Shown: piece by piece, positions 7,099-15,677 of the stretch
How the letters are laid out: each line of letters begins with the position of its first letter
Position numbering within the stretch: the stretch's first letter is position 1
UHGV virus genome: UHGV-1824706
Strand: one strand, 5' to 3'
Origin: a virus
Length of the DNA stretch: 15,677 nt
Notes under the pieces: model-generated
Told to the model about the DNA's origin: nothing
What the model saw: the letters and a program-made list of their open reading frames with translations, nothing else
Database searches by the model: none
Made by a program: the position numbers and the translations under genes

Positions 7099-7815
7099 AT
7101 GGAAAATAAAAAATCACTGACGACAGAACAGCTGGAAGACGCTAAGCGGCTTAAGGCTTTGTATGAGTCAAAAAAGAAAGAATTGGGAATAACCCAATAC
7201 TCAATCGCTGATGAACTGGGTATCACCCAAGGAGCGGTAGGGCATTATCTTAATGGCAGAAATGCGCTAAACGTTGAGGTTGCATCTGGTTTTGCACGAT
7301 TGTTGCAAGTCTCAATTGCTGATTTTAGCCAGTCAATTGCTGCCAAGGTTGCAGAACAGGCAGAAAGCCTTAAGAGCGATGCCAACGTAAGGTATGCAGG
7401 GGAATACAGAGCAGGAAAGAGGTATCCGGTGTTAAGCAGTATCCAGGCTGGCTCGTGGTGTGAAGCATGCGAACCATACACCATTAAAGACATAGATGTT
7501 TGGCTTGAGTCTGACGCGCATATTCAAGGTAATGCGTTCTGGCTTAAAGTGGAAGGTGATTCAATGACGGCACCGGTTGGGTTAAGCATTCCAGAGGGAA
7601 CATTCGTTCTTTTCGATACCGGAAGGGAGGCGATCAACGGCAGCTTGGTCATAGCAAAACTTTCTGACTCTAACGAAGCAACATTCAAGAAGCTGATAAT
7701 CGACGGCGGAAATAAATACCTCAAGGGACTTAATCCTGCATGGCCTCTCGTGCCAATCAATGGAAACTGCAAGATTATAGGCGTTGCAATTGAGACAAAA
7801 CTCAGACTGGTTTGA
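7099..7815 (+). CDS. cI: CI-type prophage repressor (HTH N-domain plus LexA-like S24 autocleavage C-domain), 238 aa
   Basis: N-terminus LTTEQLEDAKRLKALYESKKKELGITQ is lambda-cI-like; C-domain has the catalytic Ser (EGDSMTAP) and Lys (TFKKL) motifs. Confidence 0.9.
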   Translation: MENKKSLTTEQLEDAKRLKALYESKKKELGITQYSIADELGITQGAVGHYLNGRNALNVEVASGFARLLQVSIADFSQSIAAKVAEQAESLKSDANVRYAGEYRAGKRYPVLSSIQAGSWCEACEPYTIKDIDVWLESDAHIQGNAFWLKVEGDSMTAPVGLSIPEGTFVLFDTGREAINGSLVIAKLSDSNEATFKKLIIDGGNKYLKGLNPAWPLVPINGNCKIIGVAIETKLRLV

Positions 7816-7833: not shown

Positions 7834-8202
7834 ATGGTTGGAACCGCTATAGCAAGCTTTTTTGGGATGTTGGCAATCTCGACAATTTACGGCTTAGCGC
7901 ATGCTTTTATTGCGAAATCTCTATCAGAAAAAATAAGCCAGGCTTGGGCGCATAGATCAGCTCGTTTCATGATTCTGGTGATCATAGCAATACAAGGGAT
8001 ATCTGCATTTATCCTCTATGGATCAAGCTTATACCTATTGTATCAAGGCGCGACATTTACGCCTTACACCAGTGATTACGGAACTCTATACGATGGTAGT
8101 GAAGACATCACTGTGGCTTGGATCGTCTTTGGTTTATCTATGGCCGTGTCTGTTGTAGCAGACATCATTAAGGTAATTCTCGTCTTAACCTTCGCTGACT
8201 AA
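7834..8202 (+). CDS. Small integral membrane protein (122 aa, about 3-4 predicted TM helices) co-transcribed downstream of cI
   Basis: Hydrophobic segments AIASFFGMLAISTIYGLAHAFIA, FMILVIIAIQGISAFILYGSSLYLLY, VAWIVFGLSMAVSVVADIIKVILVL; SD AAGGGGG 5 nt before the ATG, 18 nt after the cI stop. Confidence 0.6.
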   Translation: MVGTAIASFFGMLAISTIYGLAHAFIAKSLSEKISQAWAHRSARFMILVIIAIQGISAFILYGSSLYLLYQGATFTPYTSDYGTLYDGSEDITVAWIVFGLSMAVSVVADIIKVILVLTFAD

Positions 8203-8287: not shown

Positions 8288-8375
8288 AAATATCCTTTGT
8301 ATTCATTTGCTTATCATTATTTCATCAAAAATAAATACCTCGGGTATTTACACAATAAAATACCTACAGTATTCT
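8288..8375 (+). promoter_or_regulatory. OL/PL: leftward-operon promoter with 17-bp operators
   Basis: Operators AAATACCTCGGGTATTT (8333-8349, near-perfect palindrome) and AAATACCTACAGTATTC (8358-8374), centres 25 bp apart; weaker third site near 8288-8304; -35 TTTACA (8347-8352), 17-nt spacer, -10 TATTCT (8370-8375). Confidence 0.55.
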
Positions 8376-8421
8376 TTAGCCATCAGCAGGACGCTGGTAG
8401 CCAAACGGAACAGATTGGCAG

Positions 8422-8462
8422 GCTCTTTAACATTGATGGGATTGTCCCGCCGAAATGCGGGA
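8422..8462 (+). promoter_or_regulatory. nutL: boxA GCTCTTTAAC plus boxB hairpin UCCCGC-CGAAAU-GCGGGA
   Basis: boxA at 8422-8431; boxB 8445-8462 shares an identical 18-nt core with the nutR boxB. Confidence 0.6.
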
Positions 8463-8775
8463 ACCAAAGAGTAGTTGGCTTTGGGGTGACGTGAAGTGCA
8501 GCTGCACGACGGCAACCGGAAGATAAGCACCCGGCGCGTCACCGCCAAAGTCAATTCCATAGGCGTTATGCAGCCGCCACCATATTCAAGAAAGCTGCAC
8601 AAGAGGTAGGAGGATTTATGTGAATACTTACATTCAGTTGAGAGATTAATTAAATAGAACTGATCGAGCAGAGTCCATAAAGGCTCATAAATGCTCTTCC
8701 ATCCCCGTCTAATTGGCGGGGAAGGAAACAACTTTGTAATAAAAAAATTCCAAAGTTGTTTCATCGGAGGTCAAC

Positions 8776-9075
8776 ATGACAGTAGTCATTACATATCTGG
8801 CTGACGATAACGCCAGAAATCGCCGCAGAGCACGCAGACAGGCTCAACGTGAACAGGCAATGCAAGAGCAGCGACTGGCGCGAAAAATTGCGCTAAAGCT
8901 CTCTGGTTGCGTCAGAGCAGATAAAGCAGCATCACTCGGAAGCCTTCGCTGCAAGAAGGCAGAAGAAGTCGAGCGTAAACAGAATCGTATTTACTACCGC
9001 AAGCCACGCAGTGAAATGGGTGTGACTTGTGTTGGTCGCCAGAAAATGAAATTAGGCAGCAAACCACTTATTTAA
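8776..9075 (+). CDS. N: N-like transcription antiterminator (99 aa) with arginine-rich motif
   Basis: ARM DNARNRRRARRQAQREQ near the N-terminus; C-terminus YYRKPRSEMGVTCVGRQKMKLGSKPLI parallels the lambda N C-terminus; SD GGAGG; downstream of nutL. Confidence 0.8.
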   Translation: MTVVITYLADDNARNRRRARRQAQREQAMQEQRLARKIALKLSGCVRADKAASLGSLRCKKAEEVERKQNRIYYRKPRSEMGVTCVGRQKMKLGSKPLI

Positions 9076-9083
9076 GGTGATAT

Positions 9084-9170
9084 ATGGAAGAAGAATTTGA
9101 AGAGTTCGAAGAGCATCCGCAGGATGTGATGGAACAATACCAGGACTATCCTTATGACTACGACTATTGA
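9084..9170 (+). CDS. orf28-like acidic micro-protein (28 aa); not in the ORF track
   Basis: Hand translation MEEEFEEFEEHPQDVMEQYQDYPYDYDY; SD AAGGTGA; overlaps the start of the ral-like gene, as orf28 does next to ral in lambda. Confidence 0.4.
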   Translation: MEEEFEEFEEHPQDVMEQYQDYPYDYDY

Positions 9171-9354
9171 TAAAAATCAATGGTGTGGACAATTCAAGCG
9201 ATGCAATGGATGCAAGCTGCAATCGGAATGCATGGTTAAGCCTGAAGAAATGTTTCCTGTAATGGAAAATGGGAAATATGTCGATAAATGGGCAATACGA
9301 ACGACGGCAATGATTGCCAGAGAACTTGGTAAACAGAACAACAAGGCTGCCTGA
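9154..9354 (+). CDS. ral: Ral-like restriction-alleviation protein (66 aa, four Cys)
   Basis: MTTTIDKNQWCGQFKRCNGCKLQSEC... matches lambda Ral as I recall it in size, position after N/orf28 and sequence; this is recall, not an alignment. Confidence 0.6.
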   Translation: MTTTIDKNQWCGQFKRCNGCKLQSECMVKPEEMFPVMENGKYVDKWAIRTTAMIARELGKQNNKAA

Positions 9355-12195: not shown

Positions 12196-12360
12196 ATGAG
12201 AGGACTTGCATACAATCCCGGCATTCTTCCGGCAGAAATGATTATTCGCCAACGCGTAAAGCCAATGCCATCGAGAGAGGAATTGCTTAAGAGAAATAGT
12301 TTCGGTTCTGTTAATGACAACAAATATCTGAATGCGATGTGGCGGAGTGGGAAGAAATGA
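12196..12360 (+). CDS. Hypothetical small protein (54 aa)
   Basis: ATG with SD GAGGAA; start is internal to the 104-aa track ORF; stop overlaps the next start (ATGA). Confidence 0.4.
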
Positions 12361-12803
12361 AACAAATGTCACTAATTGAGATGGATGGTTTTCTGAAAGG
12401 TAAATGCATCCCACGAGATTTAAAGGTTAACGAAACAAACGCTGAATATCTTGTCCGTAAGTTCGGTGAACTTGAATCAAAACTGGAAACGGCGTTGCGG
12501 GAGTGTCGTTCTGCTGGAATCACGATTGATAATCTTGAGGATAAATGCGCGAAGATGGCTGCTGAAAATACCTCACTTAAGCAATCTGAGAAGGAATTTA
12601 ATGACTTTTGTCGTGAGGAGTTTAGCGAATGGGAAGATGATGTTACTGAAACCCCAGCCACCGATGCTTTCCTGGCTGAAGTGAGGGCGCAGGGTGTGGA
12701 GATGTTCTCAGAAAAATTCGGAGGTGGCACTCCGCTATCCAATATGGTCAAAGAGGTTGCGGCTGATTTTGCGGCGAAGCTTCGCAAAGGAGGCAACCAG
12801 TGA
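12357..12803 (+). CDS. Hypothetical acidic protein (148 aa), predicted coiled-coil
   Basis: [16 protein letters not shown]...; translationally coupled on both sides. Confidence 0.5.
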
Positions 12804-13315
12804 GCAAGATTGACTATCAGGCACAGCGAGAGGCGGCGGAACGTGCAATTCCAGCAATGGAACGCCTGTTAATGCTGCCAGTTGATGATGATTTGTTAAG
12901 TGAACAGGAACTTAAAGATTACGGTGTGGATATTGATGCGCTCAACGCCTTCAAATTTCTGGCCGGACCAGAAACCGTGCTGGCACTGCTGGATGAACGG
13001 GAAAGAAACCAGCAATACATCAAACGCCGTGACCAGGAGAACGAGGATATTGCGCTTACGGTAGGGAAGCTGCGCGTTGAGCTTGAAACAGCAAAATCAA
13101 AACTCAACGAGCAGCGTGAATATTACGAGGGAGTAATCGCGGATGGAAGTAAGCGCATAGCGGAACTGGAAGCACGGGAAGTATCGCTCCCGGAACGTAG
13201 CAGCATGCTTCATCGAACAGATTTTCACGAGGATTACCAAACGGTAATGGCATACAAAGTTTCTGAAGTCATCGCTGCAATCCGCGCTGCTGGCATTCGC
13301 ATCAAAGGAGAGTGA
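12800..13315 (+). CDS. Ead/Ea22-like coiled-coil protein (about 171 aa, GTG start)
   Basis: Coiled-coil-rich sequence (VELETAKSKLNEQREYYEGV) typical of Ea22-family prophage proteins; position between the recombination genes and xis/int. Confidence 0.45.
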   Translation: MSKIDYQAQREAAERAIPAMERLLMLPVDDDLLSEQELKDYGVDIDALNAFKFLAGPETVLALLDERERNQQYIKRRDQENEDIALTVGKLRVELETAKSKLNEQREYYEGVIADGSKRIAELEAREVSLPERSSMLHRTDFHEDYQTVMAYKVSEVIAAIRAAGIRIKGE

Positions 13316-13316
13316 T

Positions 13317-13946
13317 ATGAGCGCTATAACCAAAGAACGTATCAAATTATTCATTAAAAATCCGCTTGATAACGGACTTACTCGTGGCGAACAAATGGAA
13401 CTGGCACGAATTGCACTGGCATCACTGGAACGCGAACAGATTCGCCACGAGCATGCCAAATGGTCTGACTCCACATTTGGCTGCGTTGGCCCCATTGGTC
13501 CGCTGAAACATCTCTCAAAAGAGGCACTGGAAGCCGCAGCCGAACCAGACGATCTTAGCGAGTGGGCTGATATGCAGTTTCTGTTGTGGGATGCACAGCG
13601 CCGTGCTGGTATCAGTGATGCTGAAATTACCGCTGCTATGGAAAATAAATTGAAGATCAACATGGAACGCCAGTGGCCTGAACCAAAAGATGGTGAGCCT
13701 CGCTTGCACATTAAAGAACGCGGCAACTCTCCGGTAACTCCGGGTGGTTGGATAAGCTGTAGTGATCGAATGCCGGAAGACACCAAAATGTTACTGGCAT
13801 TTAGTCAAGGTGAAATCGTGGCCGCATATTGGAACTGGGTTGTAAATCCAATTGATTACAAAAAATATAGAGCTTTCACGTATTTATCAGGAAATATCTT
13901 GGATGACGTAACTCACTGGATGCCGCTACCAGAGCCTCCACTTTGA
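13317..13946 (+). CDS. Two-domain accessory protein: N-terminal DUF550-like (annotated dATP/dGTP pyrophosphohydrolase-like) plus C-terminal DUF551-like, 209 aa
   Basis: C-terminal THWMPLPEPP signature that I associate with DUF551; N-terminal conserved acidic/aromatic region; assignment from memory only. Confidence 0.5.
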   Translation: MSAITKERIKLFIKNPLDNGLTRGEQMELARIALASLEREQIRHEHAKWSDSTFGCVGPIGPLKHLSKEALEAAAEPDDLSEWADMQFLLWDAQRRAGISDAEITAAMENKLKINMERQWPEPKDGEPRLHIKERGNSPVTPGGWISCSDRMPEDTKMLLAFSQGEIVAAYWNWVVNPIDYKKYRAFTYLSGNILDDVTHWMPLPEPPL

Positions 13947-14042
13947 AAGCGAAGCTTATACATATCTTTTACATCAGCAATCTATTGTTAATCTCCAATC
14001 AATGTTACGTTGTCATCTCACTCATGCTTTGGAGGTAGTGAT

Positions 14043-14222
14043 ATGTCTTGTCCAAAATGCGGTTCTGGAAATATTGCAAAAGAAAAAACAATGCGTGGAT
14101 GGTCTGGTGATTATGTGTGCTGCGATTGCGGATACAACGACTCTAAAGACGCATTTGGAGAGCGTGGTAAAAACGAGTTTGTCAAAATTAATAAAGATCG
14201 CGAAGGCAACGGAAAAAGCTAA
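14043..14222 (+). CDS. Small zinc-ribbon protein (59 aa; CPKCGS...CCDCGYN)
   Basis: Two CxxC pairs; SD GGAGGTAG; preceded by a 97-bp AT-rich spacer and followed by a terminator. Confidence 0.5.
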   Translation: MSCPKCGSGNIAKEKTMRGWSGDYVCCDCGYNDSKDAFGERGKNEFVKINKDREGNGKS

Positions 14223-14285
14223 TTTATTTATTCATATATGAAAACAATGTAACCAATATTCGAATTGAAGAACTGAAAGAACACC

Positions 14286-14311
14286 AAGCCGCCTGATGGC
14301 GGTTTTTTATT
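14286..14311 (+). terminator. Intrinsic terminator after the zinc-ribbon gene
   Basis: AAGCCGCC-tgat-GGCGG followed by TTTTTTATT. Confidence 0.65.
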
Positions 14312-14326
14312 GCCTGGAGAATTAAG

Positions 14327-14518
14327 ATGACCGATACCAGCCTGATTCCTGAGAAAGAAGTGATGAACAAGCTCGGTGTTTCATCACGTCAGACAATCTG
14401 GAACTATACCAAACGGCACGGATTTCCGAAGCCAGTCAGAACCCACCCAAAATCATACCTTCGTGAAGCTGTTGAAGGGTGGATTCTTAACGGTGGCGTT
14501 AATCAGAAATGCTCCTGA
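14327..14518 (+). CDS. AlpA-family excisionase / transcriptional regulator (63 aa)
   Basis: MTDTSLIPEKEVMNKLGVSSRQTIWNYTKRHGFPKP is typical of AlpA/Xis-type HTH proteins; adjacent to the integrase. Confidence 0.7.
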   Translation: MTDTSLIPEKEVMNKLGVSSRQTIWNYTKRHGFPKPVRTHPKSYLREAVEGWILNGGVNQKCS

Positions 14519-15677
14519 TGTGCCAGAACAATTTATCAGCGTGAAGCTCATACGCTTTGCGCTGAGCCTCTATCCAATCGTGTTTATTGTATACGGACAT
14601 TATCCCGCCAAGTTCATGACCGAGCATTCGCTCAGTAACATGAGGCTCGACATTCATCTCGGACAGACGTGTAACAAGCGTTCTTCTGAAATCATGTGTT
14701 CGCCAGTAACCCAGATCCATCCCTCCCCTTATTCTATTTACGAATCGGTTGGCTGCAGCGATGCTGATCGGTTTGTTTATGTCTTCTCCAGGGAAAAGAA
14801 CATCATTGTACGTTGTCATGGCCTTTTCGAGAAAAGGCTTAATTTGTTCGAAGATTGGACGGCGGATAACGTTACCCATCTTGCTATGCTCTTTCGGTAC
14901 GGTCCATACGTTGTCCAGCAGGTCAAATTCTGTCTTTGTTGCCAGCCTAAGCTCTGAGAGCCTCGCCCCCCACAGCATAAGCATCTGATGAAGGAGCTTA
15001 TTTGACGTAGACGCACGGCTTCTTTCAATAGCAAGCCAAATCTTAGCCAGTTCGTGATACGACAGTACCCGATCCCCTACCTCAGCGCGGGAGCCGAAGT
15101 CCCTTGGCTGGATGCTCATAATTGCGCAACTATCTATCAACTGACGTCGCATGCACCAACTTATTGCTGATCTTAGTTGACTTAGCACCTGCCTTGCTCG
15201 GCGTGGATTATCTTTTTCTTCTTCGGTAAGCAGGTCAACCCATTGCTTAACCGTTATAGAAGATGCCGGTCGATTAGGGAAGGCGTCATGCATGCGCTTC
15301 ATAACCGTTGATCGGTAAAGTGCCTGGGTCTTTTCTCTGAGAGTTGTAGAGACGTAGTTGTCGAACCAGTAGTCGAGACACTGGGCGACCGTCATGGAGT
15401 TCTCCACCTTCTCTTCAAAATAGGTGCGTGGATCCGTTCCTGAGAAATAGAGCTTTCGCAAGTCAGCAGTGATCTGTCTGGCATCCTTCAAAGACAGGGA
15501 TGGGTATCGACCAAGCCCAAGTCGATTAGGCTTGCCATGCCAGCGATAGCGGTACTGGAACTGGATGACCCCCTTCGGTGAAATTCGTACGCTGAGGCCA
15601 TCGGCATCAGCCACTTCTTGTGGGCCCGAATATGGTTTACCATAAATACTACGCAGTTTTGTGTCGCTTATAGCCAT
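14499..15677 (-). CDS. P4-type tyrosine integrase (392 aa); start codon is the last 3 nt of the window
   Basis: N-terminal arm-binding-type domain (KLRSIYGKPYSGPQE...GLGRYPSLSLKDAR), catalytic HDFRRT box and LGHELGGIMSVYNKHDW with the Tyr nucleophile. Confidence 0.9.
   Translation of the reverse strand: MAISDTKLRSIYGKPYSGPQEVADADGLSVRISPKGVIQFQYRYRWHGKPNRLGLGRYPSLSLKDARQITADLRKLYFSGTDPRTYFEEKVENSMTVAQCLDYWFDNYVSTTLREKTQALYRSTVMKRMHDAFPNRPASSITVKQWVDLLTEEEKDNPRRARQVLSQLRSAISWCMRRQLIDSCAIMSIQPRDFGSRAEVGDRVLSYHELAKIWLAIERSRASTSNKLLHQMLMLWGARLSELRLATKTEFDLLDNVWTVPKEHSKMGNVIRRPIFEQIKPFLEKAMTTYNDVLFPGEDINKPISIAAANRFVNRIRGGMDLGYWRTHDFRRTLVTRLSEMNVEPHVTERMLGHELGGIMSVYNKHDWIEAQRKAYELHADKLFWHIRSISD

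Follow-up and report, generated by a model that had tools for sequence, protein, structure and literature searches.

The early-left genes eaA-eaG of phage P22 (L06296, NC_002371) and hkaE-hkaD of phage HK620 are the closest described counterparts of the locus reported here. The Ea proteins of P22 were identified from a protein map (P22 record L06296). P22 EaA contains an N-terminal leader followed by a DUF550 and a DUF551 domain, and the P22 genes downstream are eaC-xis-int, all on one strand. In lambda, the interval from the recombination genes to xis is the exo-xis region (ea22, ea8.5, orf55, orf60a, orf61, orf63). According to one report (PMC8614690), the genes of this region are expressed at the earliest lytic stage and affect lysogenization and induction.

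Several enzymes and small proteins were used for comparison. The roles of residues in MazZ of cyanophage S-2L, namely the metal ligands, the catalytic Arg and the Lys/Asn pocket, have been described (PMC8342488). In Acinetobacter phage SH-Ab 15497, an enzyme with a DUF550 domain converts dGTP and dATP to monophosphates; the protein assayed was a DUF5664-DUF550 fusion, and DUF5664 by itself has dNTP pyrophosphohydrolase activity. S-2L and SH-Ab 15497 are phages with 2-aminoadenine (Z) genomes, and the DUF550 proteins of Z-phages form their own monophyletic group. Atd1, a phage-encoded all-alpha NTP pyrophosphohydrolase that manipulates a host nucleotide signal, depletes (p)ppGpp and gives protection from the toxicity of TIR-STING. 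Lar/RalR of the Rac prophage is a small Cys4 zinc ribbon.

The eaA-eaG-t'I segment in the window

Positions 13317-14311 of a 15,677-nt virus genome, here called the window, were analysed together with the flanking genes. We read this region as the eaA-eaG-t'I segment, with which the N-antiterminated early-left (pL) operon of a P22/lambda-type prophage ends. This reading, including the mechanism proposed for it below, is given a probability of roughly 0.65. The region is ordinary and is not a new self-contained cargo unit; the segment is well known and functionally unexplained. Its features are as follows.

13317-13946, plus strand: eaA-like gene, 209 aa (ORF list and Pfam matches)
13440-13727, plus strand: PF04447 (formerly DUF550), all-alpha MazG/MazZ-like NTP pyrophosphohydrolase domain, aa 42-137 (Pfam E 5.5e-42)
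13746-13940, plus strand: PF04448 (DUF551), small beta-barrel, aa 144-208 (Pfam E 7.1e-21)
13914-14311, plus strand: conserved mosaic block of ~400 bp with the HWMPLPEPPL codons, spacer, eag, 3' UTR and t'I (identity across loci)
13947-14042, plus strand: AT-rich intergenic spacer, 96 nt (GC content and ORF ends)
14043-14222, plus strand: eag (P22 eaG, HK620 hkaD), 59-aa Cys4 zinc-ribbon protein (identity to P22 EaG, phrog_2945)
14249-14308, no strand assigned: 60-bp block with t'I, identical in lambda 29106-29165, P22 and HK620 (alignment and P22 record note)
14286-14311, plus strand: intrinsic terminator hairpin and T-run, lambda t'I equivalent (terminator scan, fold, L06296 annotation)
14327-14518, plus strand: AlpA-like small helix-turn-helix protein, candidate excisionase, shown as context outside the eaA-eag block (phrog_66, E 1.9e-8)
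14499-15677, minus strand: tyrosine integrase, shown as context (Arm-DNA-bind_3 and Phage_integrase domains)

The first gene encodes a short allele of P22 EaA, the second encodes P22 EaG, and the terminator is the lambda t'I block. The window protein (209 aa) has both domains of P22 EaA (317 aa) and is 56% identical to it across the leader and DUF550, but two inserts of the P22 protein are missing, and the DUF551 barrel is a different allele with 43% identity. Eag is 91.5% identical to P22 EaG and 94.9% identical to the HK620 hkaD product. Its assignment to EaG is further backed by synteny, with a DUF551-ending gene before it and t'I after it. Gene order and the 96-nt spacer are the same in P22, HK620 and the window. 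The eaA-eag arrangement was seen again in dozens of complete E. coli genomes.

The loci differ at their edges. While P22 continues with eaC-xis-int, in the window t'I is followed directly by the AlpA-like gene and a convergent integrase. The lambda exo-xis region matches in genomic position and has the t'I block in common, and in the window an Ead/Ea22-like gene lies directly upstream of the segment. The genes of both regions are dispensable, early-expressed and mosaic. However, lambda carries orf55 and ea8.5 in the place where the window phage has eag, and it is without a DUF550 gene. A DUF551 domain is present on an Ea22 variant of an Stx-phage.

The genes identified in the window were Q, RusA, Ant, methylase, NinB, DnaB, O-like, cII, cro, cI, N, ral, erf, ssb, abc2, ead, xis and int. 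The early-left genes on the plus strand include an N-like antiterminator (8776-9075), ral (9154-9354) and Erf-like, ssb, abc2 and Ead/Ea22-like genes, and eaA starts 1 nt past the stop codon of the last of these. From this arrangement, eaA and eag would be transcribed from pL soon after infection or induction and not in the resting prophage. Translation of eaA would be coupled to that of the Ead/Ea22-like gene, and eag would be translated off its own strong Shine-Dalgarno sequence.

Genes, domains, spacer and terminator are all catalogued already: public records have contained them from the time P22 and HK620 were annotated. NCBI has a protein that matches the 209-aa ORF with 100% identity (P0002), and the small gene product is named "Eag protein" in RefSeq/NCBI. 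As it stands the finding matters little, the records being already public.

PF04447 and DUF551 domains of the EaA-like protein

The 209-aa protein has a leader of aa 1-38, a DUF550/MazZ-like domain and a C-terminal DUF551 domain ending in THWMPLPEPPL. The DUF550/DUF551 assignment, made in the first-pass annotation, was borne out by the Pfam scan. The PF04447 dATP/dGTP pyrophosphohydrolase profile matched with 142.4 bits against a cutoff of 23, covering profile positions 1-96 of 97, and DUF551 matched with 75.3 bits against a cutoff of 22.

The sole significant PDB relative of the DUF550 domain was S-2L MazZ (7ODY), in a weak alignment (pairwise E 0.57, profile E 0.0024). In this alignment E69, E72, E82 and D85 correspond to the MazZ metal ligands E35, E38, E50 and D53 (ExxE ... 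ExxD), and K111, N115, R118 and W120 correspond to K76, N80, R83 and W85, the Lys, Asn, Arg and Trp of the pocket. D92 aligns with D60 and W49 with W15 of MazZ. Because all metal-binding and catalytic residues of MazZ, including the catalytic Arg, Lys and Asn, are kept in the window domain, the nucleotide-hydrolase activity suggested earlier for the N-terminal domain is plausible on sequence grounds. The substrate and the physiological role of EaA are extrapolated.

The SH-Ab 15497 domain belongs to the same Pfam family (PF04447), but it is fused to DUF5664, whereas the window domain is fused to DUF551. Since the assayed enzyme is a DUF5664 fusion and DUF5664 is active alone, it is less certain than the Pfam name suggests that a lone DUF550 domain is active. 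The name "dATP/dGTP pyrophosphohydrolase" derives from a two-domain enzyme of a 2-aminoadenine-genome phage, and its transfer to the lambdoid EaA is inferential, though the active-site residues are intact. The Z-cluster partners purZ and datZ were absent among the window genes, where only standard lambdoid genes were present. EaA is thus not a MazZ of the kind that serves the Z-genome (2-aminoadenine) pathway: with no PurZ or DatZ and an ordinary lambdoid genome, the enzyme cannot feed 2-aminoadenine synthesis.

In the proposed mechanism, EaA would be an active oligomeric all-alpha enzyme of the MazG/MazZ type, with Mg2+ or Mn2+ held by E69, E72, E82 and D85. Its substrates would be purine (d)NTPs, (d)GTP most likely and dATP perhaps, which it would cleave to (d)NMP and pyrophosphate, and this activity would adjust the nucleotide or alarmone pool in early lytic growth.

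A more specific role is conceivable for EaA, though we consider it unlikely. EaA would act, like Atd1, as an anti-defence or alarmone-control enzyme hydrolysing (p)ppGpp or a defence-made nucleotide; DUF551 would direct it to its site, and it would block abortive infection or bias the lysis-lysogeny decision. Besides the precedent of Atd1 itself, the intact catalytic residues, the early expression and dispensability of eaA, and the effect of exo-xis region genes on lysogenization and induction (PMC8614690) are consistent with such a role, and the same-operon neighbours ral and abc2 have host-takeover or anti-defence functions. However, Atd1 is a canonical MazG and not a member of PF04447, and the sole DUF550-containing enzyme that has been assayed uses dGTP and dATP as substrates.

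The DUF551 domain has conserved ends, W-I-x-C-S-[DE]-R-M-P and T-H-W-M-P-L-P-x-P-P, and W, P, H and P columns are invariant in its alignment. It is C-terminal in the window protein and likewise in nearly all of the 150 relatives listed, out of 1221 representative clusters. When 126 members were scanned, 23 were fused to Ead/Ea22, 6 to DUF550 and 1 to Lar, the last being a natural Lar-DUF551 fusion (P0320); most were without a recognised partner. The motif is kept at the protein level in distant phages, including Pseudomonas, Klebsiella, Synechococcus and crAss-like groups. The structure model was a confident small beta-barrel, for which no informative structural relative was found. DUF551 is regarded as a widespread, phage-specific C-terminal beta-barrel that folds confidently in models. 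Two long repeat proteins matched in the DUF551 search (P0219, P0231) were rejected as spurious tandem-repeat translations. In the proposed mechanism the barrel would be a portable binding module that tethers its fusion partners to some partner.

A bolder version, to which we give little credence, would combine these elements. Lambdoid EaA would be a non-Z-genome branch of MazZ/DUF550 and a targeted counter-defence or decision-biasing enzyme. DUF551 would dock EaA, Ea22 coiled coils or Lar on one common host or phage partner, a guanine signal ((p)ppGpp) or a defence-made NTP analogue would be destroyed there, and the always-linked Eag would join in as a second component directed at that partner. 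If a DUF551 ligand or the in vivo substrate of EaA were shown, it would explain a gene set found in about half of sequenced E. coli genomes.

Eag, the intergenic spacer and t'I

The small zinc-ribbon gene with a Shine-Dalgarno sequence, reported in the first-pass annotation, is real. A GGAGG sequence at 14031-14035 lies 7 nt ahead of the ATG of eag (14043), and the predicted ligand cysteines of Eag are C3, C6, C26 and C29. The coding frame is backed by the distribution of variable sites in 65 distinct related loci (11, 4 and 3 at codon positions 3, 2 and 1). All intact alleles keep the four Cys ligands, and the tail is hydrophilic and variable. In the AlphaFold2 model, aa 1-32 form the zinc-ribbon core (pLDDT ~80), and the tail is ill-defined. 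Between alleles dN/dS was ~0.7-1.2, from small numbers, which indicates weak or diversifying selection.

Eag belongs to phrog_2945 (function unknown; E 2.4e-30). Apparently divergent distant homologues were rejected, being frameshifted copies of eag itself, and the Eag family is therefore one tight enterobacterial cluster. A 47% match to Eag at the end of a Klebsiella phage contig was not informative. Eag is an orphan zinc ribbon, and it would serve as a zinc-stabilised small binding protein in the proposed mechanism.

The spacer ahead of eag had been described as AT-rich and 97 bp long. It is AT-rich (35% GC against 47% for the whole window), but its length is 96 nt (13947-14042). This length was found in 78 of 78 loci, each with an upstream ORF ending in HWMPLPEPPL. 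No sigma-70-like promoter was found in 12300-15677, where 4.7 +/- 2.2 were expected by chance, in a consensus scan that could miss weak or activator-dependent promoters. None is annotated between eaA and eaG in the curated P22 and HK620 records. The 96-nt spacer gave no match in Rfam, no unusual RNA structure (fold z +0.70) and no more conservation than coding sequence (10 variable sites per 96 nt against 18 per 177). An RNA element or promoter in the spacer was accordingly rejected.

The terminator scan located a hairpin at 14286-14305 followed by a T-run, with a fold of -13 kcal/mol. The P22 record L06296 annotates this hairpin as lambda t'I on the eaG strand, and NC_002371 annotates the same hairpin as the terminator of the antisense aI RNA; it may thus also stop minus-strand transcripts. 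Among 5426 complete E. coli genomes, 2487 contained the 60-bp t'I block and 271 contained eag. The zinc-ribbon gene had been called independently terminated: the hairpin is present at 14286-14311, but it belongs to the shared lambda t'I block and is probably not private to the gene. In the early-left operon, t'I would halt transcripts without N modification ahead of xis, so that xis would be made only after induction, and it would probably halt the convergent int transcript too. For early-left "ea" genes a trailing hairpin alone is no ground for reading them as prophage-expressed cargo.

The mosaic block and the adjoining xis and int genes

The sequence from the HWMPLPEPPL codons through t'I was ~99% identical over 65 distinct IMG/VR loci, and identity dropped sharply on both sides. 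The block starts within the ten final codons of eaA, and BLAST matches stop at window positions 14312-14316. This ~400-bp block is the unit of inheritance, onto which different N-terminal modules have been recombined. Of the 64 distinct proteins joined to the block upstream, no more than 12 carried DUF550, and a functional coupling of DUF550 with eag was rejected on this count.

The region had been proposed to be a moron-like unit of self-contained cargo: eag, alone or together with eaA, would be expressed from its own promoter in the lysogen for lysogenic conversion or defence, to the benefit of the host. Deviant base composition and presence or absence among related phages, as expected of a moron, were both observed: the block has 38% GC (13920-14311) against 47% for the window, and some lambdoid prophages with t'I have eag while others do not (eag in 271 E. 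coli genomes, t'I in 2487). The terminator bounds the block, and the 96-nt gap ahead of eag differs from the tight packing of the neighbouring genes. However, the promoter search was negative in the scan and in the P22 and HK620 annotations, the terminator occurs with or without eag, and eaA begins 1 nt past the upstream stop, in an operon with an N-like antiterminator gene. The edge of the block falls within eaA and not outside the two genes, which are not co-inherited. PADLOC defence models gave no match for Eag, EaA or the products of the upstream ORFs 12339-12800 and 12800-13312. The cargo-unit claim is therefore not supported, and autonomous cargo is considered improbable.

Another reading, given similarly poor odds, is that the conserved features mainly reflect the mechanics of recombination. 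The DUF551 ends and t'I would be joints for homologous recombination, and eag, of little selective value, would be a passenger. It fits with this reading that identity is lost abruptly at the HWMPLPEPPL codons and again just past the T-run of t'I, that one block is joined to 64 distinct upstream proteins, and that Eag is weakly constrained, as its dN/dS suggests. On the other hand, the variable sites of the common allele are enriched at third codon positions, the four Cys ligands persist in every intact allele, and the DUF551 motif is conserved as protein in distant phages, where DNA homology is not expected.

Very improbably, Eag is a divergent Lar/RalR acting in type I restriction alleviation or as a small DNase toxin: the two are similar in length and Cys spacing and lie in analogous positions between the recombination genes and xis-int, a Lar-DUF551 fusion occurs in nature, the best Pfam match of Eag is Lar_restr_allev (E 8.1e-5) and pairwise BLASTP with RalR gave 30% identity across 54 aa (E 0.001, single comparison), but PF14354 scored 23.2 bits against a cutoff of 28.6 over profile positions 5-43 of 58 only, archaeal zinc-ribbon families scored about equally, TIGR03655 gave 15 bits against a cutoff of 39.6, hhalign gave a probability of 7% (from shallow alignments, which very remote kinship could escape), RalR is in phrog_599, a Lar protein first appeared at rank 30 (E 0.78) in a Foldseek search of BFVD, and the phage carries ral already. 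The link, raised by a precomputed Pfam tag, was rejected after failing the Pfam cutoff, NCBIfam, hhalign, PHROG and fold tests. When viral contigs were scanned with RalR, all matches were near-identical copies (98-100%), and a protein search with RalR showed little diversity.

Beyond t'I, the eaA-eaG-t'I segment adjoins xis and int, as had been stated in the first-pass annotation. The product of 14327-14518 is named AlpA family regulator in RefSeq; its phrog_66 is described as "excisionase and transcriptional regulator", and its Pfam AlpA match was sub-threshold. The integrase gene is convergent with this candidate xis and overlaps it by 20 nt. The same xis/integrase arrangement was seen more than once, among others beside sbcB in E. 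coli ET151.

The end of the early-left operon

The window is a segment of a lambdoid prophage carrying the following features.

Gene and element layout of the prophage segment
Minus strand: right operon (Q-like antiterminator, RusA, Ant, methylase, NinB, DnaB-type helicase, O-like replication gene, cII, cro)
7099-7815, plus: cI
8776-9075, plus: N-like antiterminator, early-left operon
9154-9354, plus: ral, early-left operon
Plus strand: Erf-like annealing protein, ssb and abc2, early-left operon
12800-13315, plus: Ead/Ea22-like gene, early-left operon, directly upstream of the eaA-like ORF
13317-13946, plus: eaA-like ORF, 209 aa, C-terminus THWMPLPEPPL
13947-14042: spacer, 96 nt, 35% GC
14043-14222, plus: eag, 59 aa, Cys pairs C3/C6 and C26/C29
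14286-14311: hairpin and T-run, downstream of eag
14327-14518, plus: AlpA-like gene, xis candidate
14499-15677, minus: integrase, opposite strand to eag

The early-left operon closes with two genes, the eaA-like ORF and eag; this end of it is the P22-type eaA-eaG-t'I segment, which is already known. A single base lies between the end of the Ead/Ea22-like gene and the start of the eaA-like ORF, and the eag ATG at 14043 has GGAGG 7 nt upstream. The sequence features described in the first-pass annotation were confirmed with small coordinate corrections (the spacer, given as 97 bp, measures 96 nt), while its interpretation was only partly supported.

That interpretation was a moron-like unit. The block has the moron-like traits of being AT-rich and polymorphic among related phages; the defining promoter was not found, and eaA sits tightly behind the gene before it. 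A scan of 12300-15677 returned no sigma-70-like promoter, with 4.7 expected by chance. No acceptable −35/−10 pair was seen on inspection of the spacer, and the curated P22 and HK620 records annotate no promoter in the same region. The spacer gave no Rfam match, its fold was not unusual (z +0.70) and it was not more conserved than coding sequence. The minimum-free-energy fold pairs UGGAGG (14029-14035), the Shine-Dalgarno sequence of eag, with CUCCAA in the spacer (13993-13999); this pairing is probably meaningless because the fold is no better than shuffled controls. On the simplest reading, eaA and eag would be expressed from pL with the help of N antitermination, at an early stage of infection or induction. 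The lambda exo-xis genes are reported to be expressed early in lytic growth (PMC8614690), in line with the pL reading. The identification of P22 Ea proteins from the protein map, given in the P22 ea-region record, also fits early pL expression.

The gene at 7834-8202 (+) is a stronger candidate than the eaA-eag region for an exclusion or conversion function expressed in the lysogen. It follows cI immediately, in the same orientation and at the lambda rex position, and encodes a 122-aa protein with several hydrophobic segments that matches phrog_6534 (unknown function, E 2.4e-79). Between this gene and N, a candidate 138-aa ORF (8348-8764, −) occupies the expected oL/pL/nutL site and has only a short match to phrog_6589.

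The inherited block and the t'I hairpin

The first-pass annotation had taken the DUF550/551 protein and the zinc ribbon as one unit, and the two are not inherited together. From 13914, where the HWMPLPEPPL codons begin, through t'I (14311), DNA identity was ∼99% in 65 distinct IMG/VR loci, and it collapsed right upstream and right downstream of these limits. Exactly 96 nt before eag, each of 78 loci examined (78 of 78) has the stop of an ORF whose product ends in HWMPLPEPPL, and the layout is unchanged with the most divergent Eag allele (83% identity). The ORFs upstream of eag in these 78 loci are 64 different proteins, only 12 of which contain DUF550. The inherited block is thus the DUF551 C-terminal motif, the spacer, eag and t'I, onto which varied N-terminal modules have been recombined. 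Eag and DUF551 are linked because they lie in the same physical block, and the linkage alone does not demonstrate functional coupling.

The hairpin had been described as the zinc-ribbon gene's own terminator. It is lambda t'I: the window (14249-14308), lambda (29106-29165), P22 and HK620 share 60 bp without a mismatch. Among 5426 complete E. coli genomes, this block was present in 2487 and the full spacer-eag-t'I query in 271. The hairpin is therefore not private to eag; it is a boundary element, common to lambdoid phages, that separates the integration module from the accessory early-left genes. Right after the T-run, at 14312-14316, BLAST alignments with the region come to an end. The original P22 ea-region record labels the hairpin t'I from its identity to lambda, and in the complete P22 genome the annotation is for the opposite strand, where the hairpin terminates antisense aI RNA. 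We regard it as likely that t'I acts as a boundary terminator which N can bypass. It probably also ends the int transcript, since the integrase of the window phage is convergent.

In P22 (NC_002371; locus L084, 3744-4266) the aI RNA is annotated as starting at a C1-activated promoter inside eaC and ending at the hairpin downstream of eaG. Unlike P22, the window lacks eaC, so that here the int mRNA would be the counterpart of this antisense transcript. The xis candidate and the integrase are convergent with a 20-nt overlap, which differs from lambda and P22, and the int promoter lies past the window end. This AlpA-like/integrase module adjoins sbcB in E. coli ET151 and is also seen in other prophages. 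In many related prophages t'I and the AlpA-like gene are separated by an additional hypothetical gene of 114 aa (ET151 locus L169, 4982-5326; related prophage locus L170, 2781-3125); the window does not have it, which makes the position immediately after t'I a further site of mosaic insertion.

Domains of the EaA-like protein

The proposed DUF550/DUF551 assignment was borne out by Pfam. PF04447 (formerly DUF550, now dATP/dGTP pyrophosphohydrolase) matched residues 42-137 (E 5.5e-42) and PF04448 (DUF551) residues 144-208 (E 7.1e-21) of the 209-aa protein, both far over the curated cutoffs. In PHROGs the protein falls only in families of unknown function, and NCBIfam and PADLOC scans of it gave no match. 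It shares with P22 EaA (317 aa) the leader M-x-x-ITKERI-x-LF-x-K-x-PL-x-NGLTRGEQMELARIALASL, DUF550 and a C-terminal DUF551, but is a shorter allele with another DUF551 variant. NCBI already contains a 100% identical protein (P0002), and at least 80% of the 1-kb query was present in 65 complete E. coli genomes by BLAST. In RefSeq this ORF, although intact, is broken into two, a "partial" piece and a protein of 176 aa (ET151 L169, 3976-4605; 5CRE51 L002, 4001-4630). This is an annotation artefact, because the sequence is uninterrupted and identical: the translated ET151 ORF equals the window protein, and the 996-nt region of 5CRE51 aligns without a break at 99.7% nucleotide identity. Another EaA-like protein, P0066 (285 aa), has before the leader, DUF550 and DUF551 a ∼70-aa N-terminal segment with CxC and CxxC, in which Pfam found no match.

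The sole significant solved relative of the DUF550 domain profile was the (d)GTP-specific MazZ of cyanophage S-2L (7ODY, E 0.0024); the pairwise comparison to 7ODY was weaker (E 0.57). Residues were mapped using the published roles and a chain numbering offset of 6. In S-2L MazZ, E35, E38, E50 and D53 are metal ligands and D60 contacts the guanine 2-amino group (PMC8342488). In the alignment these ligands correspond to E69, E72, E82 and D85 of the window protein, K76/N80/R83/W85 to K111/N115/R118/W120, W15 to W49 and D60 to D92. Since all metal ligands and pocket residues map onto the domain, the predicted active site is intact, which makes hydrolysis of purine (d)NTP to (d)NMP and PPi the best guess for the reaction. 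As to enzyme class, we put at about 0.7 the probability that EaA is a MazZ-like (d)NTP pyrophosphohydrolase which is active and is produced early from pL; any specific physiological role is much less probable. PF04447 is named after a DUF5664-DUF550 fusion enzyme, and DUF5664 is active by itself. PurZ and DatZ, the partners of MazZ in the Z-genome system, are both absent from the window, and therefore the purpose of EaA must differ from the Z-genome role. A signalling role has a precedent in Atd1, a phage MazG-like enzyme through which (p)ppGpp is depleted and TIR-dependent abortive infection is weakened.

An exhaustive HMMER search for DUF551 gave 1221 representative clusters. The domain lay at the extreme C-terminus in almost all of the 150 proteins listed from these clusters (length ∼65-380 aa), and some proteins among the matches listed were stand-alone. 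Partners recognised in the 126 members scanned were Ead/Ea22 (23), DUF550 (6) and a Lar zinc ribbon (1); most members had none. DUF551 is conserved at both ends and highly variable in between. Its AlphaFold2 model is all-beta and confident (pLDDT 89.1), and in a structure search of BFVD every match was to another DUF551 protein, the matches coming from many groups of phages. DUF551 behaves as a putative portable binding module, and the chance that it serves for tethering is about even. The Lar case, P0320 (142 aa), is a naturally occurring protein in which a Lar-type zinc ribbon (Pfam Lar_restr_allev, E 4.8e-12) is followed by DUF551 at the C-terminus, showing that DUF551 is able to carry a restriction-alleviation-type module.

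The Eag zinc ribbon

BLAST searches of phage and E. coli records identify the small protein as P22 EaG (91.5% identity), "Eag protein" in RefSeq and hkaD in HK620 (94.9%). The family forms one tight enterobacterial cluster, with 34 clusters among 5.8 billion proteins; those that appeared to be divergent homologues were frameshifted copies and were rejected. Eag was modelled as a zinc ribbon whose C-terminal helix is poorly defined (pLDDT 66.7), and we are highly confident of this fold for Eag as a putative small zinc-dependent binding protein. Its best Pfam match, like size and analogous position in the Rac prophage had raised a link to Lar/RalR. This was rejected: the match was below the Pfam cutoff, TIGR03655 failed, hhalign gave 7%, the PHROG was different and structural support was lacking. 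The phage moreover already encodes ral. Eag remains an orphan zinc ribbon.

Estimates of dN/dS between Eag alleles, from small numbers, were ∼0.7-1.2, with changes mostly in the tail. Variable sites in the Eag frame concentrate at codon position 3 (11/4/3 at positions 3/2/1). A 79-aa +1-frame ORF (14002-14241, +) overlaps eag; codon-position variation backs the Eag frame only. This ORF also matches phrog_2945 (E 8.6e-17), which, being matched by both frames, seems to be a mix of their translations.
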